From positions 1 to 19,504 of IMG/VR virus record IMGVR_UViG_3300029746_000007: a DNA stretch of 19,504 nucleotides; one strand, written 5' to 3'. Below are positions 1-18,383 of this stretch, piece after piece; the stretch's first letter is position 1; each line of letters opens with the position of its first letter. Source of the DNA: a virus. Taxonomy: Duplodnaviria > Heunggongvirae > Uroviricota > Caudoviricetes. The notes under the pieces are model-generated. The model did not search any database, had not been told where the DNA came from, and saw only the letters and a list, made by a program, of their open reading frames with translations. The position numbers were made by a program, and so were the translations under genes.

Positions 1-647
1 TGCGAGATGATAACTGTTGATTTTCGGCAATCTCTAGCTTCGATGATTTCAAAGAGATCACGGCACTTGTCAAGATTTAAGTCCATCAATCCAAAATCAT
101 CTATAACAAGAAGATCATAACCGGCCATCTTGTTTGAATACTCATAGTAATTATCTTCACTATGTGCATGGGCGGATTCTTGAAGCAGATAATTCGCACG
201 GATATATTTAACAGTCCTCATTTGATGTAGTGCTGTGACGCAAAGTGCACATGCAACATGTGTTTTGCCAGCTCCTGCTCCACCTGTAATCAAAAGATTG
301 TTCGGTTCATCGATCCAATCACCTTTGGCCAGTAATTCAATGACATGTGTGTTTAACTGCCTCTCTGGATCATAAAGAGAACTATCAAGGTCAGCTGCCG
401 GATATTTTAGTGTTGCTTGTTTTAAGAGCCGATTGAACTTCTTGTTTTCTCTCCCTAACCACTCATGGTTGATGATTTCAGAGAACCTTGTTTCAAAGCT
501 CTCTAATCCCGAATTCGGATTCATAAGTTGGTTTTCAAAAGCTTCTGCCATGCCGGACATACGCATCTTATAGAGTTTGTCCATAAGAAGATTTTGATTC
601 TTTGTAAGTTTGTCGTTATAATTGTATTCTTTCTGTCTGTATGCCAT
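1..647 (-). CDS. istB: IS21 helper AAA+ ATPase IstB (truncated by window edge)
   Basis: Hand translation MAYRQKEYNYNDKLTKESNLLMDKLYKMRMSGMAEAFENQ... with Walker A GGAGAGKT and Walker B LLVIDDFG. SD AAGGTGA overlaps the istA stop. An alternative ATG lies at 653. Not in the ORF track because it runs off the edge. Confidence 0.92.
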   Translation of the reverse strand, partial: MAYRQKEYNYNDKLTKNQNLLMDKLYKMRMSGMAEAFENQLMNPNSGLESFETRFSEIINHEWLGRENKKFNRLLKQATLKYPAADLDSSLYDPERQLNTHVIELLAKGDWIDEPNNLLITGGAGAGKTHVACALCVTALHQMRTVKYIRANYLLQESAHAHSEDNYYEYSNKMAGYDLLVIDDFGLMDLNLDKCRDLFEIIEARDCRKSTVIIS

Positions 648-659
648 AATCATTCACCT

Positions 660-2216
660 TTACTTGTAGTAATCCTTTCCTCTGATGTTTTCATGAGATG
701 GAAGTGATTCCGGTGATGATTCTGGATGCTCATCGCACTCCATCTTTTTAAGCACCTGCCTGTACGTCGAGTAGCGACAGGAGTTCATTTCAATGCATTT
801 ACGAGCGGCTTCTTCTGCAATGCCTTTAGGGATTGCTTTTACTCGATGTAGTATCCCGGCACATGCATTGAATGCTTGCTCTTCGTGCTTAGAAGATTTT
901 AGGATTCGATCAATCAATTCCGACATGGAAGGACCGAACACAGACGCCCAGCGCCTGTAATAGTTTCCATCTTTCGAATTGATTTCTTGATAATAAAGGT
1001 GTTCTGGAGGCATATGCTCATCCGTAGTTATGTACAACGGAAAATCCTTATAAGATCTTCTATGAGTGCAGATCAGACGGTTGTACTGATCACAGATACG
1101 AATCTCAGAAGGTGTAGCTTTAAGGATTGCTGGTTTTCCGCAGTAAGTATACAATACAGAGTAGTAGTGGCCGTCATAATCGATGTGATAATTATTAGGC
1201 ACCTTCAGTACTGCTTTGTAATCACAAGTTGTGTATTCTCCGCCTGGCAGTGGTTTCATACATGGTTTGTCATACTTGATAAACATTTCTTGTCTGGAAA
1301 AAGCTTGATTCTGAAAAGGTCTCGCATTGAGGACGGCTACTATCTTTTTGATATCAGCATTCAAATCCTCAAAGGATGTGTAAATCTTTTCTTTTAACTT
1401 TTCTATAAGATGTGTTTCAAGGTAACGCACATGATTCTCGACCGTTGGCTTTCCCTTAGGCTTACGAGCCGGTGGTGGGAGCACAATCGTATCATAGAAG
1501 TCTTCCAAATCAGAGAAGGTTGACTGTAATACAAGATCATCTTTTGTATGCTTCGTAACAGCTGTTTTTAGATTATCTGGGACAAAGTGTTTAGCAACTG
1601 CACCATAGAAGGATACCGCATGTACACAGCCTTCGATAAAACAAGGAAGTTTTTCATTTGGAAATGCCTCTGCATAGATCATACTGCTCACGCCTAATGT
1701 TGTGGCAAAGATATGAACTCTCATGATTTCACCGGTTGTAACATCCGTCAGAAGTCCAGGCTGGTCGCCAACCCAGTCGATATACATCTTCTCACCAGGC
1801 TTGCGATTTACCGCCATTGAAATTTTTGTGCCACCATAGTTTTCCTGAACAAAACGTTGATAGTATTCATAGAACTGAGATTTTTCATATCCATCTGGAT
1901 TCTTTTCTTTGTAATCCAGCCAACAGAATGAAATATTTACTCTACTGTTTGGGGCATGAATACGATCATAGTAATACTGAAAATCTGGAAGTGGAACTTC
2001 TTTGCGTTGAAGATTTTTCTGTGGGTAAAAGAGGTTCTCTACTTTTTTGGGTGACATAGCTTCAAGCTCGTCAATGGTAAGCTCAAGAGCCTTATATCGA
2101 CTCATGATCAAGTTAAGAGTGCTTGATCCGATTCGAAAACGATCCATAACAGATCTGGTTGGGCACTTATTCAGACGCATCTGAATAGCACCAATAATAG
2201 TGTTGTAGTCCTGCAT
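660..2216 (-). CDS. istA: IS21-family DDE transposase IstA
   Basis: N-terminal HTH; rve-type core PGEKMYIDWVG, VPDNLKTAV, PKGKPTVENHV; C-terminal NYHIDYDGHYYSV; SD AAAGGAGG. Confidence 0.95.
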   Translation of the reverse strand: MQDYNTIIGAIQMRLNKCPTRSVMDRFRIGSSTLNLIMSRYKALELTIDELEAMSPKKVENLFYPQKNLQRKEVPLPDFQYYYDRIHAPNSRVNISFCWLDYKEKNPDGYEKSQFYEYYQRFVQENYGGTKISMAVNRKPGEKMYIDWVGDQPGLLTDVTTGEIMRVHIFATTLGVSSMIYAEAFPNEKLPCFIEGCVHAVSFYGAVAKHFVPDNLKTAVTKHTKDDLVLQSTFSDLEDFYDTIVLPPPARKPKGKPTVENHVRYLETHLIEKLKEKIYTSFEDLNADIKKIVAVLNARPFQNQAFSRQEMFIKYDKPCMKPLPGGEYTTCDYKAVLKVPNNYHIDYDGHYYSVLYTYCGKPAILKATPSEIRICDQYNRLICTHRRSYKDFPLYITTDEHMPPEHLYYQEINSKDGNYYRRWASVFGPSMSELIDRILKSSKHEEQAFNACAGILHRVKAIPKGIAEEAARKCIEMNSCRYSTYRQVLKKMECDEHPESSPESLPSHENIRGKDYYK

Positions 2217-2283
2217 AAAAATGCCTCCTTTCGTAATCTAAAAATAATGACTACGAAAAAACTATAACACTTTATAAGAATGC

Positions 2284-2375
2284 GTGATCCGACGAAGCGG
2301 AAAAGTGTTCCGTTACGACCGGAAACACTGATCCGTTGCTAGCGGAATCGGTGATCCGATGAAGCGGAATTTGCA
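2284..2375 (-). repeat. IS21 terminal region with four ~20 bp transposase-binding repeats
   Basis: Minus-strand TTCCG-N-CGGA(T/A)CA units at 2351-2369, 2328-2347, 2305-2324 and 2284-2302 (outer two match at 18/19 nt), 21-23 bp period, preceded by terminal TG. Confidence 0.88.
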
Positions 2376-3734
2376 AGGTATTTCTAGATAATAATATCCA
2401 TTGCTTATAGCATATTGTTTTTTATAATTATCCTTCCATTGTAAATAATTTAATTCTTGCTCAGGCGTCGTTCCAAACTTCTTTGCCGACATTTCAGCAA
2501 ATCCAGATAACTGATAATGCTGTAATCCATGGACTTCAATAATCAATTTAATATCTACAATTTCGTTATCATATGGTAAAGGTCTATTTGTTTTTGGATT
2601 CAATGGTTTTAATGTACATTTGTGTTCGTGAAGTGTTTTGTATCCTAAATTGTTATTTATGTATTTTCGTACTTTTTCTTCGAGCTTTGATTCATCTCTT
2701 TCTTTCACGCAATCTGGACATTCGAATCCACTAAGGTAGGCAATTTCAATTTTTCTCAATGTATCTGAATGTATTCCACAATTACATTTAAACCAAACTT
2801 TTTTAGCAGACCTTGTTTTATATTCGTATGGTGATTTTTTATTTTTATCAGACCATAACTCCAATACTTCTGGATGTAAATATCCTAAACTGTCAAATTT
2901 ATGAACTCGTGTATTATAACAATATGGACACGTAATTCTATCTCTTGTCGCAGTTAAATCACATGGTTTCGTCTCATATGAACCATGATAATCGACATCT
3001 TGGCACTTAATCCATATCTTTTTCGAATGATTTGTCATCGCTATTTCAAAAGGATCGCAATCATTTTTATCAAAATCCCAATATTTCTCAAGAAAATCAT
3101 CGTCAAAAGTATCAATTCCCCATTGAGCAAGAGAATGACACTTTGGACATTCACATTTACTAACACCTTTGGTAATATTCTTAATCATAAATGGATTAGA
3201 GCCATGTTTTGAATTATTACATTTAATCCATATATTTTTCTTGCTTCCTTTTGGAATAGAATAAATGTCAAAATCTATTTTACTAAAATCAATTTTATCC
3301 AATAGTTCCTTCTTATTATCAATACACCATTTGCCAAATGAATTGCAATATTGACATTTAAATACGACACCCATATTTGTAATTGAATTAATATTATAAT
3401 ACCGTTTAGTTCCACAATCAGGACAAATCATACAATATGAATTATGCTCTGAAAACGAAATATCTTTTGGCGTTATTTTATTATCTTCATAAGACCAATT
3501 ATCAATAAATTCCATGTGATTATTTTTGATACACCAATTATAAAAACTGGTTGTTTTACGTTCTTTCCCAATTAAATTATAAAGATACTCTTTTGTACCA
3601 AGCCTATCACATGCACTTAATGATATGGTATTATATTTTCTATGAGAATCAGTAATAGAATTCGTTGACAATTCTCCGTATTTTTCATAGATAAACTTTA
3701 AATCATTTTTTATTTTCGCTTCTGAATATTTCAC
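2313..3734 (-). CDS. Multi zinc-ribbon (treble-clef, DUF4379-like) protein with C-terminal PD-(D/E)xK/Vsr-like endonuclease domain; 3' end replaced by IS21 sequence
   Basis: Four repeats of W..KN..P..I...S.KK.W.KC...H...CPxC type. C-terminus ESKLE..LPYDNEI..IIEVHGLQHY..DNYKKQYA..YYLEIP. The last 20 codons come from the IS end. GTG at 3734 is preferred over 3830 because the upstream part lies in a structured leader. Confidence 0.8.
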   Translation of the reverse strand: MKYSEAKIKNDLKFIYEKYGELSTNSITDSHRKYNTISLSACDRLGTKEYLYNLIGKERKTTSFYNWCIKNNHMEFIDNWSYEDNKITPKDISFSEHNSYCMICPDCGTKRYYNINSITNMGVVFKCQYCNSFGKWCIDNKKELLDKIDFSKIDFDIYSIPKGSKKNIWIKCNNSKHGSNPFMIKNITKGVSKCECPKCHSLAQWGIDTFDDDFLEKYWDFDKNDCDPFEIAMTNHSKKIWIKCQDVDYHGSYETKPCDLTATRDRITCPYCYNTRVHKFDSLGYLHPEVLELWSDKNKKSPYEYKTRSAKKVWFKCNCGIHSDTLRKIEIAYLSGFECPDCVKERDESKLEEKVRKYINNNLGYKTLHEHKCTLKPLNPKTNRPLPYDNEIVDIKLIIEVHGLQHYQLSGFAEMSAKKFGTTPEQELNYLQWKDNYKKQYAISNGYYYLEIPCKFRFIGSPIPLATDQCFRS

Positions 3735-3774
3735 AATTCTACCTACACTTCCTCCTACACATACAATAAAAATA

Positions 3775-3876
3775 GAACAGTAGAAGAGGCGTGTAGGTTT
3801 CCTCATATGCTTGGTAGCTACTCCAAACACCTACTGTTCCATAATTCTCACAACCAGCTATGACACCAATCATGAG
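3775..3876 (-). ncRNA. Structured 5' leader of the endonuclease gene
   Basis: Minus-strand hairpin CTCATGATTGG/CTGGTTGTGAG (G-U rich), then a multi-stem element closed by GAACAGTAG/CTACTGTTC containing GTGTTTGG-AGTAGCTA-CCAAGCAT and GAGG/CCTC, followed by a T-run. Confidence 0.55.
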
Positions 3877-3920
3877 TACACACATTTATTCTCCATACCA
3901 ATACAGAGAACATATTAAAA

Positions 3921-4005
3921 CGCAGCACATTGCACTCGAAGCAAATACGAATTAACGTACACACTACTTAGCAGGTAGGTTCCAAACCTCATGGATTTAT
4001 GCTGC
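3921..4005 (-). tRNA. tRNA-Ser(GCT)-like, atypical, no encoded CCA
   Basis: Acceptor GCAGCAT/GTGCTGC with discriminator G; anticodon arm CTAC-CT GCT AA-GTAG; long variable arm GTACG/CGTAT; T loop TTCGAGT. Deviations: A at position 8, C53-G61. Confidence 0.78.
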
Positions 4006-4013
4006 ATAAGAAA

Positions 4014-4131
4014 AGAACCCATAAGTTTTTACGCCTACAGGTTCTAAGAAAGGAAGGTAAAACATGAGTGTAATCACAAAAAGAAAACTTCACGTCAAAA
4101 AGCACTATGAGTTTTTGCGCCCATAATGCCT
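4014..4131 (-). ncRNA. Candidate sRNA: two sibling hairpins flanking an anti-SD/anti-AUG linker
   Basis: 12-bp stems at 4100-4131 and 4014-4045 with loops CGCAAAAA and CGTAAAAA; G-U pairs favour the minus strand; linker contains CATGTTTTACCTTCCTTTCTT. Confidence 0.5.
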
Positions 4132-4162
4132 AAGAAAATCTATATTTCTAATAATATTTATC

Positions 4163-4744
4163 TTACAGTCCAAAGATATCTGCTAGAAAATCTAACATCT
4201 CATTCTGATCAAATGCATCTGTACAATAGATACTATGTGAAATATATCTATCTCCGTCGGAACTAGAAACAGTCATTCCGTGTACTTCGCCATCTTCGTC
4301 TTTGGTGAATCTAACATCACAATCATCTTTATGTTCACACATATCACAGTCAATGTCATCATCATGACCACCTAACTCTTCGTCATCCGGTTCAATCTGA
4401 ACAAGAATTTTTGTTTTAGCGTCAGGATAAGATCTTAAAATACACTTAGAATTTACATTTTCCATTGCATAAATTGCAGTTGCCCAAGAAGTAATATATT
4501 CTCCATCTCTTTTTAATTTATCGCAATAAATACGATCGTTAATAATCATAACTTCATATTCGTTTGGATATTCATAATCTAAGTGAATATATCCAAAATC
4601 ATATCCATATAAAACAAGTTCTTTAATAATTTCTTTTGCATCATTATATTTCGCCACAACTGAAATGGTTTCTGTAGAATCTGTAAGTACGTCATCTAAC
4701 ATTTCACAAAATTCCTCAATGCTTTCAAAAGTAAAAGTATCCAA
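4163..4744 (-). CDS. Acidic hypothetical phage protein with small Cys cluster (CDMCEHKDDC)
   Basis: Long ORF in operon orientation. The track's GTG (4753) lies within the SD GGAGTG, so TTG at 4744 is the better-spaced start. Confidence 0.8.
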   Translation of the reverse strand: MDTFTFESIEEFCEMLDDVLTDSTETISVVAKYNDAKEIIKELVLYGYDFGYIHLDYEYPNEYEVMIINDRIYCDKLKRDGEYITSWATAIYAMENVNSKCILRSYPDAKTKILVQIEPDDEELGGHDDDIDCDMCEHKDDCDVRFTKDEDGEVHGMTVSSSDGDRYISHSIYCTDAFDQNEMLDFLADIFGL

Positions 4745-4762
4745 ATAATTCACTCCAATCCA

Positions 4763-5041
4763 TTATGCTTCGTTAACGGCATCCTTAAGTGCTTTACCAG
4801 CTTTGAATTTTGGTGTTTTACAAGCTGCGATCTTCATTGTTTCCCCTGTCTGTGGGTTGTGACCTTCATGTTCAGCTCTTTCTTTTACTCCAAAAGTTCC
4901 AAATCCAACAATCTGAACCTTTCCGTCCTCAATCATACCATCTTTAATTGATTCAATAACTGCATCTACATACACAGCAGCATCTTTCTGCGTTGCTCCA
5001 ATTCTTGTAGCGACTGATTTTGTTAATTCTACTTTATTCAT
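4763..5041 (-). CDS. hup: HU-family DNA-binding protein (SPbeta YonN-like)
   Basis: MNKVELTKSVA...VQIVGFGTFGVKERAEHEGHNPQTGETMKIAACKTPKFKAGKALKDAVN is the canonical HU signature; SD GAAAGGA. Confidence 0.96.
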   Translation of the reverse strand: MNKVELTKSVATRIGATQKDAAVYVDAVIESIKDGMIEDGKVQIVGFGTFGVKERAEHEGHNPQTGETMKIAACKTPKFKAGKALKDAVNEA

Positions 5042-5075
5042 TTAATTAATTCCTTTCGTTCCATATCATTTTTAC

Positions 5076-5198
5076 AAAAATAGAAGAGTACACGCCTGTT
5101 TAACGGTCGCATCTCTTCTCAAGAAATATATAATAACAGCCCATACAATTCCGATTTACGAGAGTTTGAATTATACCGGGTGTAGTATGAGCTGTTAT
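5076..5198 (-). other. Two intergenic stem-loops (terminator/processing signals)
   Basis: 14-bp stem ATAACAGCTCATAC/GTATGGGCTGTTAT (5133-5198) with inner CCGGT/ATCGG; AGAAGAG/CTCTTCT (5082-5119) followed by ATTTTT on the minus strand. Confidence 0.55.
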
Positions 5199-5208
5199 GC
5201 GACTTTAT

Positions 5209-6180
5209 TTAATTTAAAGTTTTAATATGGGTTTTGTTTTCAATAATATTCCCATCTTTGTCAAGACATATAATCATAAATCCTTCTTTCTGAGAATTTA
5301 TTAACTGTCCATCATTATATCTCATTTTATCTGTTTCGCAACAACATCCCTGTTCATAAATCATTGTATTTCCAACTTTATACGAACCAACTCTATGCGT
5401 ATGTGACATTATCAAGGCATCAAAATTATATCCTTCATTACGAAACCAAGATAAAGCTTTTTCCGCAGTTTTTAATGGACTACTTGAAAAAGCTTTCGGA
5501 TGGCAAAATAATTTTCTTTTATATAAAGAAAACCATGTTCCTGTATAATTAATATCAATATCATCAAATACATCGCACAATGGAGCATATTTGATTTTCG
5601 CTTTTGTTCGTCTATCGTAATGTGTAAATCCATCAACAAAAATATAATCAAGAGCTGTTTCCGGCATTAATTCCTGTAATTCGTTGTCAAGATTCTTTGC
5701 CAGATATACTCCTAGACGCAACTCATGATTTCCATGATTAACGAGAACTTTCTTTGGTTTAACCATTTCAATAAGATCAATAATATATTGTCTTACGCCA
5801 ATCATTTCTTCTAAAGGTGATACTCTATATACTTTAGAAAAACGTGATAATGCCATACAGTCAATCAAATCTCCATTCAGTTGCAGAACATCAATCTTTC
5901 CGCTAAACTTGCGAAAGGTTTCTAATGGTTTCGCAAATGGATAATGTAAATCAGAAATTGATAAAATTGTAGTTGCTACTCCAGCGTAACCATTTATATA
6001 ATTATCATATTCTTCATATCCAACTGCTTGTTTCCTTAATTGATCTGGGCTAATATCTAACCCAAGCATATCTCGAATCTCTACCCAATCCATATCTGTT
6101 TCTTTGCGCTTTTTCGCAAGACAGCAACGGAGCTTCCATTCAAAATCTGTTTCATTTTCTAATCTAAATAAATCAGTAAT
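5209..6180 (-). CDS. Calcineurin-like metallophosphoesterase (YonJ-like), probable ATT start
   Basis: Motifs SDLH, NGDLID, GNHE, CHP and SHTH. The frame is open 29 codons upstream of ATG 6093 to an ATT at 6180, which lies 9 nt after SD GAAGGGAG. ATG 6093 has no SD. Confidence 0.88.
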   Translation of the reverse strand: MTDLFRLENETDFEWKLRCCLAKKRKETDMDWVEIRDMLGLDISPDQLRKQAVGYEEYDNYINGYAGVATTILSISDLHYPFAKPLETFRKFSGKIDVLQLNGDLIDCMALSRFSKVYRVSPLEEMIGVRQYIIDLIEMVKPKKVLVNHGNHELRLGVYLAKNLDNELQELMPETALDYIFVDGFTHYDRRTKAKIKYAPLCDVFDDIDINYTGTWFSLYKRKLFCHPKAFSSSPLKTAEKALSWFRNEGYNFDALIMSHTHRVGSYKVGNTMIYEQGCCCETDKMRYNDGQLINSQKEGFMIICLDKDGNIIENKTHIKTLN

Positions 6181-6197
6181 AAGAATGCACTCCCTTC

Positions 6198-6398
6198 TTA
6201 TTCTTCATCTGGAAGTTCAAATGTAAGCTTAAAATCTACAACTTCGACATCATCCGGAATTTCTGCGATTACCTGCTCTGTAATATCTTCTCCAGTATCT
6301 GTATCTACAATTGTCAAATCCTTTACTGAAATATTTTTTAACTGAATATTTTTCTTTGCTGGAGTTGTCTTACTCTCGCTTGTTGTTATTTTAATCAT
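6198..6398 (-). CDS. Small phage protein, possibly YonK-like
   Basis: 66 aa with SD GAAAGGA. Size, basic N-terminus/acidic C-terminus and position just upstream of the phosphoesterase resemble SPbeta yonK; the family call is tentative. Confidence 0.7.
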   Translation of the reverse strand: MIKITTSESKTTPAKKNIQLKNISVKDLTIVDTDTGEDITEQVIAEIPDDVEVVDFKLTFELPDEE

Positions 6399-6445
6399 CC
6401 TTTTGTTCCTTTCATATCAACTATATTTCCAGACTATTCTGGATA

Positions 6446-6474
6446 CAAAAATAGAAGAGTAATAATTACTCTTC
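6446..6474 (-). terminator. Intrinsic terminator-like hairpin
   Basis: GAAGAGTAA/TTACTCTTC stem overlapping the stop of 6466..6717, followed by TATTTTT. Confidence 0.55.
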
Positions 6475-6717
6475 CTCGTCTTCATAATATTCTTCTAATT
6501 CAGGATCTGGTGCTTGAAAACCTATTGCAAATGTCTGTTCAGTCCCGTCACTTTTAGATGCGACTTCTTCATTCCATTCTGCAATAATCGAAGATGGTTT
6601 GATCTTCATAACCTCAATCCATGAGTATAATACATTTAATAATTCATCTGTAACCGGTAACAATACGACACCAGTTATAAGACCGAATATATATGATAAT
6701 AACTTTTTATCTTTCAT
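6466..6717 (-). CDS. Small membrane-anchored protein with acidic tail
   Basis: Hydrophobic N-terminus LLSYIFGLITGVVLLPV; SD AGGAG overlaps the upstream stop. Confidence 0.8.
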   Translation of the reverse strand: MKDKKLLSYIFGLITGVVLLPVTDELLNVLYSWIEVMKIKPSSIIAEWNEEVASKSDGTEQTFAIGFQAPDPELEEYYEDEEE

Positions 6718-6729
6718 AGGCAGTTACTC

Positions 6730-8163
6730 CTAGAGTGTAAATTTCAAACTAGAGTTTGCTATTACAACTCTTGTTGATTTACATTTTCTTTCTAATTCTT
6801 TTTCCAAAGCCGGTTTTAATGTTTTTTTAGCAAGTTCTGACCCATGATGTAATATAATTTTTTGACAATTTATATCTGTATAATTTTCTACAAGCTGATA
6901 GAATGGCGCATGTCCACTCATTGATTTTAATGAATATGAAGAACATCTACATGAATATTCTTTTTGATCAATTGTGACGCTTCTCCTTTTATTGTCTTTT
7001 AACAGAGAAGCTAACGAACCCTCTGTAGAAAATCCAACAAATAATACCGTCGAATTTGGATCAACAATACATTTCTTTAAATGATGTCTTATTCTTCCAA
7101 CTTGACACATACCACTTGTAGATAAAATTAAACATGATTCATCACTAGACACTAAAGCCTTACTATCTTCTGGTTCTTTCACAAAAGTAAAAATTCCACT
7201 TTCTAACATCTTGTCAAAATCTTCTTTGTCTTTACCAACCAAACATTCAGCGTAGTCTTTGAAGATTTTAATCGACAATGGAGAATCTATATAGACTTTT
7301 GGTTTCCACTCTTCATCTTTATACATTTCATATATCATAAGAGCCAATTGCTGAATTCTCGATTGTGCAAAGCTTGGGATTACAACACGACCTTTTAATT
7401 CATGAATCTGTGTCTCAATTATAGATTTAAATTTTTCTAAATCATTTTTTCGTTCTTTTTTACCTGTCTTTAATTTTGGTTTATCTCCATATGTAGACTC
7501 TGCAATTACATAATCACATGTCCTTACCTGCTCATAATGTCCAACAAACCTATTCTCAATTATTTTATTTCCAATATCACCTGTGATCAGAATGGATTTT
7601 GTAACATTATTCACTGTTAAGAATAATAAAACCTGACAACTTCCGAGCAAATGACCGCTTGGTATTAACATAAATGACAATTCATCATCAATGAAAATCT
7701 TCTTATCATATTCATATTCTGATACATAATTCATCATATTAAATACGTCATCTAATCCATATAACGGTGAATAATTCTTATCATGCTGACTATTAATTAT
7801 AAGAACATCACGTTCGTTTATTTCTGCACAATCTTCAGCCATATCTTTTAATACGATAGAAGACCCTTCTGTAACGATGACTTTTGCTTTACATCCTTCT
7901 TTATAAAGTTTAGGGCATAATAAGCAATGATCCGCATGATTATGGGTCAGGAAAATATAATCAATTTCTTTTGGTTTGAATTCTTTATATTTTCGATTAT
8001 TCACCAAGAAATCTTCATATCTATCATTTGTTTGATGTAATCCTGCATCTACCAGAATTTTATGATTTGGTGTAGATATAAAAATAAGGCTTCCTGTAAC
8101 ATCCTCCGAAGAAGGTGAGTCTACAAATGAAACCTTTATTGATTCTTTCTTTTTCTTAGCGAT
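6730..8163 (-). CDS. Metallo-beta-lactamase fold beta-CASP ribonuclease (CPSF73/Ysh1-like), probable ATC start
   Basis: Motifs VTGS, LVDAG, THNHADH, GHLLGS, TGDIG, ESTYG, PSFAQSR, SGMCQVGRI, SGHA and HHG. The track's GTG at 8175 is inside the SD GAAAGGTGG; in-frame ATC at 8163 is correctly spaced. Confidence 0.92.
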   Translation of the reverse strand: MAKKKKESIKVSFVDSPSSEDVTGSLIFISTPNHKILVDAGLHQTNDRYEDFLVNNRKYKEFKPKEIDYIFLTHNHADHCLLCPKLYKEGCKAKVIVTEGSSIVLKDMAEDCAEINERDVLIINSQHDKNYSPLYGLDDVFNMMNYVSEYEYDKKIFIDDELSFMLIPSGHLLGSCQVLLFLTVNNVTKSILITGDIGNKIIENRFVGHYEQVRTCDYVIAESTYGDKPKLKTGKKERKNDLEKFKSIIETQIHELKGRVVIPSFAQSRIQQLALMIYEMYKDEEWKPKVYIDSPLSIKIFKDYAECLVGKDKEDFDKMLESGIFTFVKEPEDSKALVSSDESCLILSTSGMCQVGRIRHHLKKCIVDPNSTVLFVGFSTEGSLASLLKDNKRRSVTIDQKEYSCRCSSYSLKSMSGHAPFYQLVENYTDINCQKIILHHGSELAKKTLKPALEKELERKCKSTRVVIANSSLKFTL

Positions 8164-8192
8164 GGCACTAACCACCTTTCTATAAGTATTAT

Positions 8193-8456
8193 TTACTTGA
8201 TTCCATTAACCATATCAGCATATTTATCCTCAATATAGATATGATTTCTGGTAATACCTACTCCAATATGAGCATAAATAGTTTTTAGATAATTCTTATT
8301 ACCTTTTTCTTTCTTTTTTCCGTCTTTATACTTTTCAATATCATAAAAACCACAAGAATGATATCCACCGATTGAACTATTGGTTCTAACATGAGTTCTT
8401 CCAATAATACCTTTTTCAATTAGGATGTCTAAATCATTTTTACTAATTTCTTTAAT
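8193..8456 (-). CDS. Unannotated 87-aa basic hypothetical protein with ATT start
   Basis: Open frame IKEISKNDLDILIEKGIIGRTHVRTNSSIGGYHSCGFYDIEKYKDGKKKEKGNKNYLKTIYAHIGVGITRNHIYIEDKYADMVNGIK* fills the gap between tRNA-Pro and the nuclease gene. SD GAAAGGAA is 9 nt upstream, and there is no in-frame ATG/GTG/TTG near the 5' end. Confidence 0.75.
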   Translation of the reverse strand: MKEISKNDLDILIEKGIIGRTHVRTNSSIGGYHSCGFYDIEKYKDGKKKEKGNKNYLKTIYAHIGVGITRNHIYIEDKYADMVNGIK

Positions 8457-8507
8457 AGTAATTCATTCCTTTCGTACATTTTTCTCTCCGGAATAGGAGA
8501 GGAGTAA

Positions 8508-8580
8508 TAGGAATAACACGACTCGAACGTGCGACCTCTTGATCCCAAATCAAGCGTTCTACCAACTGAACTATATCCCT
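8508..8580 (-). tRNA. tRNA-Pro(TGG), no encoded CCA
   Basis: AGGGATA-TA-GTTC AGTTGGTA GAAC-G-CTTGA TT TGG GA TCAAG-AGGTC-GCACG TTCGAGT CGTGT-TATTCCT-A forms a full cloverleaf. Confidence 0.93.
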
Positions 8581-8587
8581 AGACAAG

Positions 8588-8663
8588 TTGCTGAAGCCCC
8601 GGAATTGAACCGAGTTTTTACATGGTTATGAGCCACGCCAAGATCCAACCTTTACCACCAGCA
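8588..8663 (-). tRNA. tRNA(CAT)-like (Met/fMet/Ile2 class), atypical
   Basis: Anticodon arm CGTGG-CT CAT AA-CCATG; T arm CTCGG-TTCAATT-CCGGG; acceptor TGCTGG/TCAGCA with internal mismatch; D arm shortened (AAGG-TTGGA-TCTT). Confidence 0.7.
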
Positions 8664-8671
8664 TATGAAAA

Positions 8672-8739
8672 TTGGCAGTAGATGTTTTACCCACCGCCAA
8701 TATATTAATCTTAGTAGGGAGATGAAAAACATCCCCCTA
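8672..8739 (-). other. Two stem-loops 5' of the tRNA pair
   Basis: TAGGGGGATG/CATCTCCCTA and 13-bp ATTGGCGGTGGGT/ATCTACTGCCAAT; G-U pairs fit the minus strand. Confidence 0.5.
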
Positions 8740-8989
8740 TATTCTCCAACGAAGGAGTAATAATATACACGTGTCGCTTATTTGTATTCCGCATTTGCAA
8801 TAATAGCGGAGAGGATAGTTGTGTTGGTATTACGAAATTCGTACGCAAATTTACTCTTGAACATGTTAGACAAGCATCATTGCCCACTTTCTCCTCATAA
8901 GGGGGCATTGGCATATTACTGAAAAACGTTGAAAAATAGGCATATTTTATGTGTATTTTTTGTTCGCTATGTACAAAAAATGGGCATTT

Positions 8990-11602
8990 TTAACAGTTTT
9001 TTGAAAAACATTTTAGTAAATTTGCTGAATTTACTTCATATAATACTTTTAATAAAAGGGATTTATTCTTATTTAATGTTGAAAGAAGTTGTTTTTGAGT
9101 AGATTTTATATTTGGCGTTATAAGAAATGCACGATTAATCATCCATGAAAATAATCCTAGATAATTTTTTGATATTTTTATTTTTTGAATATCTGAAATC
9201 AAATTATCAAAATCTTTCCGCAATAACAAATAATCATTGTCTTCAGAATCTCTAGAATTCGTATCATAAAGACTTAAAGAATATTTTGTAATCAGATCTT
9301 CAACTTTTCTACATGTTCTAATATTATTTGACATTTCAAACTTGTTGAAAAAATGCGTCATTGGAAGAGTAGAAGTTGAATTATGGAACTCTGACAAATC
9401 TAAATTATATAAATAATTCATAGGACATTTTAGTTCTTCGTTTATATTGTCCTTTTTAAAATTCTTTTTGATAAGTAGCCAAAATGACGGATAAAGGTTT
9501 GTTTTTATATCTAAATCTTTTTGGATTCGTTTTATTTCATCTCCAAGATCAATATCAAAACGACGCTTGGCATTGTCTATTGCAACCTGAGCCAAAACAC
9601 TTAAAATACAAACATAATCTACATATTTCTCGTCATTGAAATTGCAAGAATATGTTCTGGCTATTTGTGCTAGATTACTAGACAACCCTATATCTAATTG
9701 TGAATTCGCAAGGTTATTATCAATCAATGCATATTCATCCATAGACCGATTATATTTTTTTGAATCTCTAGGAATGAGATTTACAATAGTAGGATGATCT
9801 GAATAACATTTTTTTGCATGTTGAACTATATCTGGTTGATTGGTTGTATATCCGCTATCAGAGTCCATATCCATCCCATTGTTTCTATCTTGGGCATCAG
9901 TTCCATTCATATTAATCGCAATACATTGTCTTCCTAAATTAAAATATTTATCTAACTTTTTATGATAAGTATTATGTAAGTACGTTAAATTATTTTGACT
10001 ATTAAACGGACTTCTGAAAAATGCAAGATGCTCACCACTGTTAAATCTCTCCGTATAACACTGAATTGTTCCAGGTTCTACAAAAAATGTGTCATCATTA
10101 TCAACAGAATCTTCCTCACCCGTTGCTGCATACAAGAGCATAGCATATGGAGAACCAACTACAACAAGATTTTCTGCATTTTGTATTAATTTTCCACTTT
10201 TCATATTTAATACATAATTTTCAATAATTTTTCTTTTTCTTCTTCTGAAATATGAACTTCTCAAGAAATCTCGATTCTGTTCACATAAAGCAATTAGGAC
10301 TTCGTAATCATTTGAAAAATTCTTATTTTTTTCAAGATACTTTAAGAATTCATCATTGTTCTGTTTAAGCATTTCAACATAATCAACACTTTCTTTAACT
10401 ACATTCTCCATAATAGATTCATCTAAACAGTTAACCATTTGATAGCTCATTCTTTGAACTTTCCCAAATTTACTTTCATGAGCCGTCTTGACAATTCCAA
10501 ACATACAATTATTCTCATAAACTTTTTCACACCAATACTCATAAGATATATCAAATTTTAACCACTTCATTGCATTGTCTGTAGTTATTAATTCTATATC
10601 TTTTACATAATGTTTATTCCCAAACATATCTTTGACGGTAGCAGAGTAATAGTCATCTCCAAAATAATCTTTAAAAAATTGTTGGATGTTCGTACTAAAT
10701 GCTGCCATTTTGCAAAAATGATGCCTCAATAAAACATAACCATTTCCCCATTCGGGAAAGATACTACTGTCTATAAGAGCTTGTCCATCGAATAGAGTAT
10801 TTTTTAATTTATAATTATCAATATGCTCCGCATAGCATTGCCGGTTCTTATCTGTTTTAACAGCAACAACTTTTGTATCGAAATAACGATCAACATCTTT
10901 TAATATTAAAATATTTTTAGGATTGATTTTTACCTTTCCGACTATTGCACTAGATATAAGAGGGGCATAGGCACTAATTTCTACAATAGGAGAATTCTTC
11001 TTTGGCAATTTAATACCCATGTATAAGAATTTTATAGCTTTTTTATATAACCTATCGCATATAAACATACAGGAACCTTTTTTTGCCTTTCCAGTGCTTC
11101 TATATAACATTTTGTAATGAATGGTTTCTCGTTTTATAATATCCCCATTCTTTTTTCTAGTTATATATTCCACATTTACACCGTCGTTATAAAAAATAGT
11201 GCGAATATCTTCTTTGGTATGCTTTAGATATTTTTCTTTATTCAATTGTGCTTCTCTAAATAATTGGGATAATTTTTGACGCTTATTTTTCTTTTTTTGA
11301 ATTTGCGTTTGATATTTAAAAGATTTAGCTAATTTATATTCTGTACGAGCTTTAATTGCGACTTTTTTTAGATGATTAATTTCTTCTTCATACGATCTTG
11401 ATCCAAAATTAAATTCTAAACAGATAATATCTCTAGTAGATTCTTCTTTCCATACTTTTAATCCGTTATCTTTTAGATAATCACTAAATAGACTGTTGGT
11501 AAACATTGCATCTTTGTATTCATAATGATCTCTGACACCATTGTTATATTCATACAAAGTGCTTGCTTCAATATTTTTTATTTTAATTCCAAATTCACTC
11601 AT
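8990..11602 (-). CDS. YonO-like single-subunit (two-barrel) DNA-dependent RNA polymerase
   Basis: 870 aa. Motifs RSTGKAK.GSCMF, LFDGQALID, LLRHHFCK, RMSYQMVNCL, FRSPFNS, catalytic NGMDMDSD (DxDSD form of DxDGD), IGLSSNLAQ and VAIDNAKR; SPbeta-like neighbourhood. Confidence 0.9.
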   Translation of the reverse strand: MSEFGIKIKNIEASTLYEYNNGVRDHYEYKDAMFTNSLFSDYLKDNGLKVWKEESTRDIICLEFNFGSRSYEEEINHLKKVAIKARTEYKLAKSFKYQTQIQKKKNKRQKLSQLFREAQLNKEKYLKHTKEDIRTIFYNDGVNVEYITRKKNGDIIKRETIHYKMLYRSTGKAKKGSCMFICDRLYKKAIKFLYMGIKLPKKNSPIVEISAYAPLISSAIVGKVKINPKNILILKDVDRYFDTKVVAVKTDKNRQCYAEHIDNYKLKNTLFDGQALIDSSIFPEWGNGYVLLRHHFCKMAAFSTNIQQFFKDYFGDDYYSATVKDMFGNKHYVKDIELITTDNAMKWLKFDISYEYWCEKVYENNCMFGIVKTAHESKFGKVQRMSYQMVNCLDESIMENVVKESVDYVEMLKQNNDEFLKYLEKNKNFSNDYEVLIALCEQNRDFLRSSYFRRRKRKIIENYVLNMKSGKLIQNAENLVVVGSPYAMLLYAATGEEDSVDNDDTFFVEPGTIQCYTERFNSGEHLAFFRSPFNSQNNLTYLHNTYHKKLDKYFNLGRQCIAINMNGTDAQDRNNGMDMDSDSGYTTNQPDIVQHAKKCYSDHPTIVNLIPRDSKKYNRSMDEYALIDNNLANSQLDIGLSSNLAQIARTYSCNFNDEKYVDYVCILSVLAQVAIDNAKRRFDIDLGDEIKRIQKDLDIKTNLYPSFWLLIKKNFKKDNINEELKCPMNYLYNLDLSEFHNSTSTLPMTHFFNKFEMSNNIRTCRKVEDLITKYSLSLYDTNSRDSEDNDYLLLRKDFDNLISDIQKIKISKNYLGLFSWMINRAFLITPNIKSTQKQLLSTLNKNKSLLLKVLYEVNSANLLKCFSKNC

Positions 11603-11620
11603 TTACTATCTAATCACCAC

Positions 11621-11824
11621 CTAGTTATATACTTGTTCCCAGAATTCTTCAGCAGAATCGAAACCGCCATAGTCCAAGGATTTTGCATATTTATCATTTA
11701 ATTCTTCATTTGTACGAGAATAGCATTCTTCTAATTCACTACAATTTTCACAATCTTTATCTACACATTTTGAATAGGTATCTCCATATTTGATTACTTC
11801 TAACTTTTCTTCTAAATTTTCCAT
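11621..11824 (-). CDS. 67-aa acidic Cys-cluster protein directly upstream of the RNAP gene
   Basis: ATG at 11824 follows SD GAGGAGGAG; contains CVDKDCENCSELEEC. The track's 134-aa extension overlaps the upstream gene. Confidence 0.78.
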   Translation of the reverse strand: MENLEEKLEVIKYGDTYSKCVDKDCENCSELEECYSRTNEELNDKYAKSLDYGGFDSAEEFWEQVYN

Positions 11825-11828
11825 ATCC

Positions 11829-12086
11829 TTACTCCTCCTCATATTTTTTACATCTTTCTTTATTAGCAGCTTCTTCCATATATAATTTCTCTTCACGCTT
11901 TCTATCTCTTTCAATCTGTTCAGCGATTCTAGAACCTTTATCTTGTCCAATAGAAATGGGGTAGTAGTCTGTGCAAAAATCATACTCCCGGATTTCTCCA
12001 CCATATCTCTTATGAAATTCTTCACGGCTTGGGATATGTAATGTGTTATGGTTCTGTGAGTTTACTGTTTCTGTTTCGTTTGTCAT
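11829..12086 (-). CDS. Hypothetical protein (85 aa)
   Basis: SD AAGGAG; tightly coupled to the next gene. Confidence 0.75.
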   Translation of the reverse strand: MTNETETVNSQNHNTLHIPSREEFHKRYGGEIREYDFCTDYYPISIGQDKGSRIAEQIERDRKREEKLYMEEAANKERCKKYEEE

Positions 12087-12292
12087 ATTTGTTGTTCTCC
12101 TTTTTGTTTATAAAATTATTCATCTCTGGTCATCCTTTCTTGATGTGAGATTAATTGTTTTAGCATCAACTATGAGAACGAAATGTAAATAGGTACGAAT
12201 CTTTTCTATTCCGTCTTTCATTCTCATACGTCATCCAAATGAGAGGTGTTGTTTTATAATGACATCTCTCTACTTATATATTCCCCATATAT

Positions 12293-13099
12293 TTATTTTG
12301 TTTTTGTATTTCTACCTTTCAATTTCCCAAAAGAATCTATATTATATGCTTTCAGCATCTTTTTAAGTGCCCATTCTATTTCTTTTTCGTATCCCTCCTG
12401 ATTCAAGACATAAATGTTTGGTAAATTTTTAGGTGGCTTATTTGGATCTTGTTGGATGCTTCCAACTTCTTTTTTTATAAGAAGTGGATTGATATCTCCA
12501 AATTGAGAAGTTAGATATTTAATACATTGTGTTATACTATCTTTTGATGTCTTTAAATCTTCAGCCATCGTTTTTAAGCTTCTGAAAAAAGCTTCCGGTT
12601 TTTCCTCTGGGTTATATAACACCTCTTCATTGTTAATTTTTGGTCTGAAGAATATGTAAGAATTGATATAGAGAAATGTCATTAATATATTCTCTTTATT
12701 GATACTAGATTCATTCATCATAATGAAATCTAATTGGGACGATGTGATTTTAGAAAAATTTTCTCTTGCTTCAAAATTATCTGGGATAACTTTTATTTCT
12801 ATTCCAGTATCATAACCAATAGAGTCTAAATCTTGTTTTACTACGATCATCTTGTTATTTATCATGTATTCAAGAACGTCTAATATTTCTTGAAAAGCTT
12901 TTGGTTTTCTTTTTGTGGTTTTATATCCATAAAATTCAAGAACCTTTCTGATAGTAATCCAGCTATAGTCCTCGTAGGATCTATATTTATCAATTAGAAT
13001 GTAAGTAATATAAAATTTTCTACTAACTCCAAATTTCGTTTTAATATCCCCCTGGATGTATTCATTTGGGAATCTAGTAAAGTATTCTGTTTTTTGCAA
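12293..13099 (-). CDS. Tandem winged-helix DNA-binding protein (replication-initiator-like or transcription regulator)
   Basis: Two related units (FTRFPN...ITYILI...ITIRKVLEFYG...ILDVLEYM and FSKIT...FLYIN...SLKTMAEDLKTSKDSITQCIKYL...NIYVLN); TTG start after SD AAGGAGG. The function is inferred. Confidence 0.7.
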   Translation of the reverse strand: MQKTEYFTRFPNEYIQGDIKTKFGVSRKFYITYILIDKYRSYEDYSWITIRKVLEFYGYKTTKRKPKAFQEILDVLEYMINNKMIVVKQDLDSIGYDTGIEIKVIPDNFEARENFSKITSSQLDFIMMNESSINKENILMTFLYINSYIFFRPKINNEEVLYNPEEKPEAFFRSLKTMAEDLKTSKDSITQCIKYLTSQFGDINPLLIKKEVGSIQQDPNKPPKNLPNIYVLNQEGYEKEIEWALKKMLKAYNIDSFGKLKGRNTKTK

Positions 13100-13126
13100 T
13101 GCAAACCTCCTTCATTTTTTACGTGA

Positions 13127-13207
13127 GTTCGGCAGACGTCACTTTTGGGTACGTCGGATTTCTAAAAATTGGAATTTTGACGTCACCTTTTGGTACGTCT
13201 GCCGAAC
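13127..13207. repeat. Nested direct/inverted repeats (candidate operator or iteron pair)
   Basis: 21-bp direct repeats GACGTCACTTTTGGGTACGTC (13135-13155) and GACGTCACCTTTTGGTACGTC (13179-13199); 13-bp inverted repeat GTTCGGCAGACGT/ACGTCTGCCGAAC. Confidence 0.85.
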
Positions 13208-13352
13208 CGAAACAAGATATATAACTATTTAAGAAGACAGACTAATACTCCGTAAATGAACTGTCGTCCATTTACTCCGTAATTTTTCATTCGATTGTTT
13301 ATGGTTGGATTGAAGATTAATAAATCAAACAATCTGTCTTCTTATCTATTCT

Positions 13353-14138
13353 CTATCCATGATTAGAAATAACATCACATTTTCTTTCTTCATATCCTTT
13401 TCTACATTCTTCCAAAAGATTATCTACCATTCTTTCAAATAACTTTCTGATTGTCTTATCATGCTCAATAGCATCCAATGTAAAACATGTCTCTAATTTA
13501 TTCTCGTAACAATAATCATCAGCGACTTGACGCAAATCATAATCTGGATACATATCATTGAATTATTTGTAGAGATATTTATATAATTCTCCATTTGATT
13601 CATATCCAAGATAATCCATTAATTCCTCATACTTCGGAAACATCTTAGAAGTCCAGTAAGAATATTTTCTTTTTGGTCTAGGTTGTTCTTCTATATTGTT
13701 AATCTTTTCATTGAGCAGATTTAATGTCTGTGCCATTGCAGCCTGTGTATTGGATAATGATGTAAGGATATCCGTGAATGCTTTCATATCTATATTCTGT
13801 GATGAGAGAATGTTGTTTCTATATGATTCAATGATATCCCATACCCAATCCATGAATTGATTCGCTTTCTTACTATTCGACCATCTACAGATTTCCATAA
13901 TCCCTCTTTCTGTGTAGTAGTAAACTTGATGACCTAATCCATCTGATAAACAAATGGACAAATTGTCCAATCGGTCTTCATGACGTTTATGAATTTTATA
14001 AATTGCGTTCATTGGATCTTTGTATTCTAATGCTTGTCCAATTTGTTCTCTTGTAAGCAACATGTCATCATTCATATTTCTATAGAAGTCACATGATACT
14101 GTACCAAAGGTTTCTGTTGTAATTAGTTTTAGTTTCAT
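13353..14138 (-). pseudogene. Bro-N domain (antirepressor-like) gene split by an in-frame TAA
   Basis: Bro-N pattern TREQIGQALEY.DP..AI.KIH.RH...YYTERGIMEICRWS.SKKANQFMDWVWDII. The 191-aa and 66-aa ORFs are in one frame (AAA TAA TTC AAT GAT ATG), and the second lacks an SD. Confidence 0.75.
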
Positions 14139-14484
14139 ATTTTTCTTATCCTTTCTTTCGTGTGTGTCTTGGTTTTATTTTCTAAGTTTGTGATTATATG
14201 AGTAAGTATTGATGATGAAGTAGTGCAATATAGTATTCTCTGCAAAGATAAATATTTGTTGTGCAATTTTCATTCTGTGATTTGTATTCCGGAATAGAAG
14301 GGTAGAGTTAATTTTTATTACCTATGTCTGTGGAGAAAATCTTAATGATTTGATGTTATTTTTAATTTTTATATACTTAATGTAAAGTTGGTATGGTATG
14401 GATATTTGGATTAAAATTGATGCCATTTATTAAGATTTGGTAGGCGGATATAGAATGATGTATTTTCGGATGATTTAATAGATA

Positions 14485-14516
14485 TGAAATAAGACAGACT
14501 TTATTGCCTGTCTTAT
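14485..14516 (-). terminator. Intrinsic terminator-like hairpin
   Basis: ATAAGACAGGC-AATAAA-GTCTGTCTTAT followed by TTC on the minus strand. Confidence 0.55.
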
Positions 14517-14689
14517 GTTGTGTCTGTTTTATTTTTCTATTGTGCAGCACATCATTCTTTACATGCTGTCTGTGGAGTATTTTTGAGCTGAGAGAGATTT
14601 AAGAGACTTTATGACAGTAGATAGTAAATTGGTAGGGTATGATAGTGGAATTGATTTTAGATGTCATTTTGTGCGATTTAAGTATCTGT

Positions 14690-15184
14690 TTATGCAATCG
14701 CCATATTTTCTGCGGGGATATCAAAAATATTTTTATCTGCATCTGAATCTTTTGTTGATAAGTGATTTGCCGGAAATCCTTGTTCATCTTTATTACAAAA
14801 CCCTTTTACTTTACCGGTTCCACGAATAGATAGAATTGATAATGCTTTTAGCCCGTACGTAGGATTGACATAGATTGTAATTGGTTTGTTTCTACATGGA
14901 ATGTTAATGGAACCGTGTAATATTTGCTACGTAGATGTTTGTATGTAAATATCTCTCGGTATTGTTTTATAAATGTCATATGTTCCGTAATTTGAATAGA
15001 TATATGCATTTGTACATCCAATGTTTAATGTGTGTCTGTCTGTTTCTGATTGATAGCGATTATATGAGCCTTGTGTATATTGGCAATCTGGTATATCTCC
15101 ATAACGTACTTGCTGGATATTGCCTGAAGGGTGGTTAGCCCATGATGGGAATTGGATTAAGATTTCTTCGTTTGTTAATCGCAT
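14690..15184 (-). pseudogene. Hypothetical ~164-aa gene interrupted by an in-frame TAG
   Basis: Strong SD AAGGAG before ATG 15184. After TAG (14927-14929) the same frame stays open 78 more codons to TAA at 14690-14692. Confidence 0.6.
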
Positions 15185-15199
15185 TTTGTATTTTCTCCT

Positions 15200-16650: not shown

Positions 16651-16665
16651 TATATGCAATCATTA

Positions 16666-16884
16666 TTATTCTATTACGACACTCAGTTCACACCCTAAAG
16701 CCTTGCACAACCTATCCAATGTATCTAATGTAATGTTCTCTGTTCTATTATTCAATAAGTTGCTAATAGCTTGTTTGCTCAAGCCAGTAGCGTTGCACAG
16801 GTCTTTCTGTCTCATGTTTCTATCTATCATTATATGCTTTATCCCATTTGTTATATCTTCTATGTTATTGTATCTAATTTTCAT
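16666..16884 (-). CDS. XRE/Cro-CI family HTH transcriptional regulator
   Basis: IKHIMIDRNMRQKDLCNATGLSKQAISNLLNNRTENITLDTLDRLCKALGCEL; SD AGGAGG is better spaced to the second ATG (16884) than to 16887. Confidence 0.92.
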   Translation of the reverse strand: MKIRYNNIEDITNGIKHIMIDRNMRQKDLCNATGLSKQAISNLLNNRTENITLDTLDRLCKALGCELSVVIE

Positions 16885-16912
16885 CATTAACCTCCTAAAA
16901 GAGTAGTATTAT

Positions 16913-16953
16913 ATAGTATCATAAAATGATAAAAGTATCAATATAGCAATACT
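16913..16953 (-). promoter_or_regulatory. SigA-type promoter of the XRE gene with overlapping operator
   Basis: TTGATA (16941-16936)-17 bp-TACTAT (16918-16913) with extended -10 TG; imperfect palindrome AGTATCA-N6-CAATACT at 16934-16953. Confidence 0.72.
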
Positions 16954-17008
16954 ACTAATTATTTACATAGATATTATATCATTTTTTGTGTACTATTTTG
17001 CATTAAAA

Positions 17009-17041
17009 AGTATTGATAAAACAATACTATTATGCTATTAT
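17009..17041 (+). promoter_or_regulatory. SigA-type rightward promoter with overlapping operator
   Basis: TTGATA (17013-17018)-17 bp-TATTAT (17036-17041) with extended -10 TG; perfect palindrome AGTATTG-N6-CAATACT at 17009-17028. Confidence 0.78.
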
Positions 17042-17047
17042 TAGTAC

Positions 17048-17775: not shown

Positions 17776-17776
17776 A
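17747..17776 (+). terminator. Intrinsic terminator-like hairpin
   Basis: AGCAATCTA-AAATA-TAGATTGCT followed by TTTCTT. Confidence 0.6.
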
Positions 17777-18320: not shown

Positions 18321-18383
18321 ACAACTATAAATCATACAGAGCAACAAAAAACAAATAAAAAGAAAAGGATAAAGGTGCAAATT

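Follow-up and report, generated by a model that had tools for sequence, protein, structure and literature searches.

The window analyzed here is a stretch of 19,504 nucleotides of viral DNA (Caudoviricetes; positions 1 to 19,504 of the IMG/VR record IMGVR_UViG_3300029746_000007), and its positions lie within the 83.5-kb phage record G000. Three genes on the minus strand of this window most likely start at codons other than ATG, GTG, or TTG. These are a gene for a calcineurin-like phosphoesterase (ATT 6180), a gene for a β-CASP nuclease (ATC 8163), and an open reading frame (ORF) of 87 aa, orf89 (ATT 8456). Codons of this class (ATT, ATC, and ATA) are called ATH below, or AUH in RNA. It is quite probable that the three genes use these weak codons behind strong, normally spaced Shine-Dalgarno (SD) sequences and that the protein dose is kept low in this way. 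An earlier sequence-only reading had placed ATT, ATC, and ATT 8-9 nt behind the three SDs and had found no usable ATG, GTG, or TTG in frame. Both statements stand on the minus strand: the phosphoesterase gene and orf89 have no usable canonical start codon, and the only candidate of the β-CASP gene, GTG 8175, lies inside its SD. The features concerned are as follows.

5209..6180, minus strand: calcineurin-like metallophosphoesterase gene (Pfam Metallophos), predicted ATT start at 6180-6178, 323 aa

6190..6197, minus strand: SD site GAAGGGAG of the phosphoesterase gene, -12.7 kcal/mol, aligned spacing of 7 to ATT 6180

6730..8163, minus strand: β-CASP/metallo-β-lactamase nuclease gene (Pfam), predicted ATC start at 8163-8161, 477 aa

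8172..8180, minus strand: SD site GAAAGGTGG of the β-CASP gene, -13.0 kcal/mol, aligned spacing of 8 to ATC 8163

8193..8456, minus strand: 87-aa ORF, orf89, predicted ATT start at 8456-8454, stop TAA at 8195-8193

8466..8473, minus strand: SD site GAAAGGAA of orf89, duplex with the 16S tail of -10.4 kcal/mol, aligned spacing of 9

The SD of the phosphoesterase gene, GAAGGGAG (6197-6190), sits right behind the TAA of an upstream 66-aa gene and is followed after 9 nt by ATT (6180-6178). From its opening at 6204 to ATG 6093, the frame contains no ATG, GTG, or TTG. The only candidate codons in this interval are ATA 6201, ATT 6186, CTT 6183, and ATT 6180. The encoded protein has a Metallophos domain (Pfam, 1.4e-9). 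ATG 6093 has nearly no SD of its own (-2.2 kcal/mol). Related phosphoesterase genes were compared at 80 loci and at L004; L042 and L071 were excluded because contig ends truncate them, which left 79 usable loci. An N-terminal stretch, D-L-x-R-L-E-N-E-T-D-F-E-W-K-L-R-C-C, is encoded upstream of the window’s ATG 6093 and is kept in 71 of these 79. The conservation of the 29 residues upstream of ATG 6093 rules this codon out as the start of the phosphoesterase, and a gene called from ATG, GTG, or TTG only would lose this conserved N-terminus. In eight loci (L051-L056, L058, and L059), the N-terminal domain is of another kind and has an ATG of its own. Two loci, L039 and L065, possess an in-frame TGA and then TTG exactly at the column of ATT 6180, and five more (L066-L070) have TTG two codons upstream of this column. 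L031, L036, and L057 offer ATH codons only.

The β-CASP gene has the SD GAAAGGTGG (8180-8172), followed after 8 nt by ATC (8163-8161). Its product was identified through the Pfam domains Beta-Casp (7.6e-25), Lactamase_B (6.5e-11), and RMMBL (1.4e-4). The in-frame GTG 8175 lacks a separate SD (+0.2 kcal/mol). The comparison covered 29 IMG/VR loci of 55-99% identity. Automatic start-column counts use ungapped extrapolation and mis-register loci with an N-terminal indel (nine β-CASP TTG loci were counted as TAT, and most of the heterogeneous family of the gene at 54146, described below, was affected). The counts for these two families were therefore taken from the printed codons. At the column of the window’s ATC, 20/29 loci have ATC and 9/29 have TTG. 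The nine TTG loci form the 55%-identity group and share the arrangement AAAGGTGG, 8 nt, TTG, and all 20 loci of 66-99% identity keep ATC. No in-frame ATG, GTG, or TTG is present between the upstream stop and ATC in 11 of these 20 (L003, L009-L013, L017, L023, L024, L026, and L029), where the SD-embedded GTG either lies in another frame or is closed by an in-frame TAA. GTG 8175 thus appears to be dispensable, and ATC would be the sole possible β-CASP start in the 11 loci. Two further loci contain 33 nt identical to window positions 8180-8148 (minus strand), from the SD through ATC GCT AAG AAA AA (L113:1780-1812 and L114:1783-1815). Downstream of this identity, both encode a strongly diverged 478-aa β-CASP homolog (IAKKKLKTDGILFCGEN...), and therefore a mosaic joint appears to lie right behind the initiation region.

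In orf89, the SD GAAAGGAA (8473-8466) is followed after 9 nt by ATT (8456-8454). The frame opens at 8462 after a TGA, two codons before ATT, and its sole ATG, GTG, or TTG is an ATG seven codons before the stop. When compared with L113, orf89 has 21 synonymous and 25 non-synonymous codon changes, and the nucleotide differences at the three codon positions number 19/15/37. It is thus a real coding gene, with substitutions of the coding type and the third position dominant. Conservation extends down to about 40% identity. At the start column, ATT is found in 5/6 and ATA in 1/6 related loci, with a canonical alternative in 0/6. The ATA locus, L025 (41% identity), has GAAGG, 8 nt, and ATA. A syntenic gene (30327-30509) in the complete 173-kb relative G002 has a similar N-terminus and an SD-ATA start. 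No family for orf89 was found in Pfam or PHROG. A phmmer search of 1.84 billion representatives identified 18 small relatives. In public gene calls for relatives of orf89 (P0001 and P0003-P0005), the TGA before ATT is translated as Trp, or the gene is lengthened through tRNA-Pro until an ATG is reached. Such calls are annotation artefacts caused by the ATH start.

The DNA just upstream of orf89 also has a perfect 6-bp hairpin (CTCTCC, 6-nt loop, GGAGAG) at 8484-8501 (minus strand). It would sequester the SD of a 16-codon upstream ORF (uORF), which runs from ATG 8479 to TAG 8431-8429 (minus strand), has its own SD (GGAGAG and 4 nt), and overlaps the ATT start of orf89. From the hairpin to the ATT, the DNA is nearly identical across L111-L115, even with a different upstream tRNA. 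The RNA fold around the orf89 start was unremarkable and not significant (z = -1.2).

The sequence-only reading had also envisaged an alignment of homologs for conservation or interchange of ATH. In the comparisons above and below, ATH is kept and swaps with TTG, ATG, or GTG at the same column in relatives, and conservation of the phosphoesterase is not confined to the part downstream of ATG 6093.

An ATH codon near an SD means little alone because ATT is a common codon in a genome of 32% GC. Gene-like ORFs, chosen by codon usage, were therefore screened in G000 and in G002. SDs were scored by pairing of the upstream sequence with the 3′ tail of 16S rRNA, whose motif was found in two of three host genomes. 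The aligned spacing of canonical starts in both genomes peaks at 6-9 nt (211/267), and the spacings of the three sites in the window (7, 8, and 9) fit this peak. Among ORFs without an SD-led canonical start, ATH occurs at the SD-defined position in 29/294 cases vs 75/2535 for other non-canonical codons, an odds ratio of 3.6 (Fisher p = 2.8e-7). ATH starts were flagged for 8/131 ORF-genes in G000 and 17/241 in G002. One of the eight in G000, at 43689 (or 43722), is ambiguous, with an ATA directly followed by ATG. Canonical starts in G000 number 95 for ATG, 10 for TTG, and 3 for GTG, so that ATH is about as frequent as TTG and more frequent than GTG. The SDs of ATH starts have a median of -12.95 kcal/mol vs -10.8 kcal/mol for canonical starts (p = 0.013). 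An alternative genetic code in which TGA encodes Trp was considered and rejected: long ORFs under table 11 cover 52-100% of every 5-kb bin. The stops of the long ORFs are TAA (23), TAG (5), and TGA (4).

Comparative support for an ATH start was found for seven genes of G000, four of them outside the window. The first of the four is the gene for the replicative polymerase, PolIII-α (76482), which has AGGAGG, 9 nt, and ATT, one base after the upstream TAA. At its start column, 78 loci have ATT (44), ATA (7), ATG (10), or GTG (4), while four are not alignable and nine are mis-registered or other. In L145 the start region is closely preceded by an in-frame TAG, and in L144 a TAA is followed by ATG at the same column. 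The DnaB-like helicase gene (72296) has ATA in 63, ATC in two, ATT in one, ATG in seven, and other codons in ten of 83 loci. A canonical alternative is absent in 23 of these; for example, the frame can open at the TGA of GGTGA one to two codons before ATA. A gene for a 110-aa protein (34006) was not found in a search of five relatives. A scan of the collection yielded 46 loci that are alignable at the N-terminus, with ATT in 27 (all without an alternative), ATG in 13, and TTG in one; 25 further partial matches were left out. The fourth gene (54146) encodes an AP2/endonuclease-like protein that resembles homing endonucleases and has ATA in G000, L405, L406, and G002, the last with an SD of -19.1 kcal/mol. 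In the group of L456, ATA is the first codon of the open frame, and the same column in L463 carries ATG. The genes flagged in G002 include those for a GIY-YIG endonuclease, RNase H, a ClpP-like protease, a phosphoesterase, and a kinase-like ATPase. The use of ATH starts is thus a clade- and genome-wide trait of large temperate Lachnospiraceae phages and is not peculiar to the 2.3-kb block.

Relatives of the helicase were found in Lachnospiraceae genomes, including those of the isolates Eubacterium segne BX4 (L293) and Konateibacter massiliensis Marseille-P3773 (L296). In L296, two codons separate the opening of the helicase frame from ATA. The clade is temperate, since the classification of one viral record is that of a provirus. 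Among cultured phages, the closest are Clostridioides phages of the phiCD211 type, with 28-30% identity in the helicase. A 4-kb DNA query against 50,697 phage records returned tRNA-sized matches only and no close named phage. In all three Lachnospiraceae genomes with related prophages (L300, L301, and L302), infC has the arrangement TGGAGGTG, 7 nt, ATT AGC GA(A/T) TTA ATG, and its first ATG comes four codons past the ATT. The classical ATT start of infC, the gene for initiation factor 3 (IF3), thus seems to be retained in the hosts, and from this arrangement it is likely that IF3 discriminates against AUH starts in these cells.

A mechanism can be proposed from known cases, namely infC and pcnB of Escherichia coli and cvfC1, ccpN, infC, and citZ of Staphylococcus aureus. 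The host initiator fMet-tRNA(CAU) would decode AUH with a mismatch at the third position, and IF3 would disfavor the resulting initiation complex. The strong SD could partly compensate for the weak start. The yield might then be roughly a tenth of that from AUG, and the dose of nucleases and other DNA enzymes would be limited. The ATH-start genes of G000 include those for the β-CASP nuclease, the phosphoesterase, PolIII-α, the helicase, and the AP2/endonuclease-like protein.

In E. coli, infC starts at AUU and is autoregulated by IF3, pcnB also starts at AUU, and an SD-led AUU limits expression. The phage genes resemble E. coli infC in the SD-led AUU, and infC of the Lachnospiraceae hosts has the same SD-ATT arrangement. 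Unlike E. coli infC, they encode nucleases and DNA enzymes rather than a translation factor, no feedback loop is evident, and ATC and ATA are used as well. In S. aureus, one report describes chromosomal starts mapped by Ribo-Ret for cvfC1 (AUU), ccpN (AUA), infC (AUA), and citZ (AUA), all behind extended SDs (Nat Commun 2026, PMC13009471). The AUU and AUA starts are given there as about 10% of AUG expression in reporters, and in rich medium ccpN reaches as much as 30% (PMC13009471). The phage genes are like this set in belonging to Firmicutes, in having AUU or AUA at a normal distance behind a strong or extended SD, and in the conservation of the codon among relatives. They are unlike the four S. 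aureus genes in that the trait extends to about 5-7% of a phage clade's genes, ATC is used too, a replicative polymerase and a helicase are included, and the starts are known from sequence alone. The phage trait is a dense new example of the known SD-led weak starts of infC and the S. aureus genes. No paper on phage-wide use of ATH starts was found in the open-access full-text literature, a search that cannot show that none exists.

Several points weigh against the proposal that weak codons at these three genes hold the protein dose down. Every start has been derived by comparing sequences, and the set of screened genes is a heuristic one, not a curated annotation. In 58 phosphoesterase relatives with ATA at the column, an in-frame GTG is also present three codons upstream inside an SD-like TAGGTGGA, and the start is ambiguous. 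The β-CASP frame of the window is open through GTG 8175, and a start there, with four additional residues, is possible. For orf89, no relative has ATG, GTG, or TTG at the exact start column, and the distant database homologs P0018 and P0022 have ATG three to five codons upstream. The difference in SD strength falls to p = 0.06-0.07 when the energy threshold that selected the ATH sites is applied to canonical starts as well. Finally, the frequent flips between ATH and ATG among lineages could mean that the choice of codon is nearly neutral and is not selected for low expression.

This last point leads to an unlikely alternative, in which a strong and well-spaced SD makes the identity of the start codon matter little, so that ATG, GTG, TTG, and ATH interchange by mutation in an AT-rich genome and serve no regulatory end. 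The phage genome has a GC content of 31.9%, the SDs of ATH starts are above average, and the start column flips among ATT, ATA, ATG, GTG, and TTG between close lineages in every family examined. However, ATA is kept in 63/83 helicase loci and ATT in 44/78 polymerase loci across 70-100% protein identity, and ATC is kept in 20 β-CASP loci, counts that are inflated by shared ancestry. The ATH genes are mostly those of nucleases and DNA enzymes. In addition, the AUU and AUA starts of S. aureus give only 10-30% of AUG expression despite extended SDs (PMC13009471).

The sequence-only reading had favored a switch, by which the ATH genes would be silent during lysogeny and would become translated jointly once IF3 proofreads less strictly or the phage provides an initiator tRNA. 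It had been suggested by the clustering of the three starts next to an atypical tRNA with a CAU anticodon. The two features next to orf89 are as follows.

8507..8581, minus strand: tRNA-Pro(UGG), found by ARAGORN and by the Rfam tRNA model (69.4 bits)

8589..8662, minus strand: tRNA-like element with a CAU anticodon loop, found by ARAGORN alone

In a bacterial initiator tRNA, position 1:72 is unpaired and the foot of the anticodon stem consists of three G:C pairs. The ARAGORN-only element at 8589-8662 has mismatched stems (T.T and G.G), a paired 1:72 position (G-C), and two rather than three of these G:C pairs (TGG...CCA). It is identical to a Lachnospiraceae initiator tRNA at 50/74 positions and shares with it the anticodon arm GGCTCATAACC. 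The Rfam tRNA model, at E <= 1 over 8380-9000, matched tRNA-Pro only and not the CAU element. The element is probably a decayed initiator-type tRNA. The atypical neighbor is thus present as an ARAGORN call, but it is unmatched in Rfam and its 1:72 pair is closed. Its CAU anticodon would read AUH no better than the host initiator does.

Credible initiator-type tRNA(CAU) genes are found in some relatives a few kb upstream of the β-CASP gene, and these host-derived variants favor the switch. The L010 type (L010:3665-3738, L013, and L017) is identical to the host initiator at 63/74 positions and has compensatory changes in the acceptor stem. In this type, U29:A41 replaces the first of the three G:C pairs, C38 is present in the loop, and the end is C1xU72. 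The G002 type (G002:28495-28567 and L285) has U1xU72 and a D stem of 3 bp. Both types have a 1:72 mismatch, yet only two G:C pairs. All variants keep the CAU anticodon, so pairing to AUH would be no better. The β-CASP ATC is also kept in G001, G003, and G004, where no tRNA(CAU) was detected, although these records are 89, 72, and 86% complete and its absence is thus not proven. The claim that a phage initiator tRNA enables the genes therefore finds no footing here. G000 and the complete relative G002 possess only CAU, Pro, Arg, and Ser tRNAs. A tRNA with a GAU or UAU anticodon and initiator features, which could read AUH, was sought and no credible one was found. Two other elements were noted. 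One (G001:C1:169092-169165, the same as L318:1293-1366) is an ARAGORN-only call of tRNA-Ile(UAU) and is unlike an initiator. The other (G005:C1:10560-10646, L316) is a tRNA with a long variable arm and a UAU anticodon loop (Rfam 47.5 bits).

Sensitivity to IF3 is plausible. AUH is the codon class that IF3 discriminates, as in infC, and the SD-ATT arrangement of infC in three host genomes makes IF3-dependent control probably present. However, the IF3_C domain was found in 0/5 phage records, in a search whose control was positive in 10/14 known genomes, and ATT serves as the start of infC and the like in the hosts with no phage involved. Clustering gives a mixed picture. In the block of G002 that is syntenic to the β-CASP region, four of five genes have ATH (p = 0.014, moderate). 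In G000, three ATH genes in five consecutive ones, given 8/131, have a permutation p of 0.10, which is weak. The ATH starts are spread over the genome and include those of PolIII-α and the helicase, so the three genes do not make up the special local cluster that was first supposed. A regulator with a non-canonical start repressed by IF3 is known in Streptomyces, where one report describes a GTC start for sigR (mBio 2017, PMC5472188), and it is a switch of this kind that the sequence-only reading had in view. As described there, sigR is a single regulator gene with experimental proof, and for the phage genes IF3 dependence is not indicated. A dedicated switch is possible but unsupported, and as an account of the three genes it is quite improbable. 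A more specific form of it is somewhat more doubtful still. This would be an AUH regulon, in which a remodeled host initiator tRNA (U29:A41 and its 1:72 end) expressed by the phage loosens proofreading and boosts the nuclease and replication genes with ATT, ATC, or ATA starts only in lytic growth.

Two remaining alternatives are very improbable. Ordinary annotation would start the β-CASP gene at GTG 8175 and the phosphoesterase gene at ATG 6093, which are the first canonical codons in frame and the only kind that standard gene callers accept, and would leave 8193-8456 without a gene; it conflicts with the 71/79 conservation upstream of ATG 6093, with the loss of the SD-embedded GTG in 11/20 ATC loci, and with the coding-type substitutions of orf89, so that the ATG 6093 start and the non-coding reading of orf89 are already contradicted. 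A route to orf89 by frameshifting or coupling from the uORF is suggested by its overlap with the ATT and by a short SD-ATG uORF that likewise overlaps the ATA of L025, but the offset between the two frames differs between the window and L025, and also in the P0004 contig; there is no evident slippery heptamer, and an SD at the correct spacing precedes the ATT or ATA of orf89 in each case.

Initiation at ATH codons with a limited protein dose, if it is true, would have several consequences. In a group of prophages that is widespread in the human gut, about 5-7% of the genes would begin at codons that textbooks treat as near-exceptions, among them the genes for the replicative polymerase (ATT) and helicase (ATA). 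The choice of start codon would be a routine dial of protein dose in Firmicutes phages, and the level of IF3 would be a candidate global input to phage expression. Gene callers limited to ATG, GTG, and TTG cut or miss such genes, and orf89 is not callable at all. The cultured lysogens K. massiliensis and E. segne make the idea testable. The trait also raises a testable question about IF3 and the phage-borne variants of initiator tRNA.

The genes of the block are arranged in the order CAU tRNA-like element, tRNA-Pro(UGG), orf89, β-CASP, an 83-aa gene, the 66-aa gene, phosphoesterase, and an HU-like gene. The 83-aa and 66-aa genes have ordinary SD-ATG starts. One further feature was identified between these two.

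6453..6475, minus strand: terminator-like hairpin after the 83-aa gene, from a consensus scan only

This hairpin would split a unit of orf89 and β-CASP from a unit of the 66-aa gene and phosphoesterase. The consensus scan found three terminator-like sites vs 1.3 expected.

Elsewhere in the window, a 518-aa protein with a Mu-transposase C-terminal domain (1.8e-13) adjoins a 505-aa protein with three DUF4379 treble-clef zinc-finger repeats (9.8e-18). The pair is encoded at 660-2216 and 2313-3830, both on the minus strand. Possible starts there are a GTG at the opening of the frame, or a GTG or ATT about 32 codons in.

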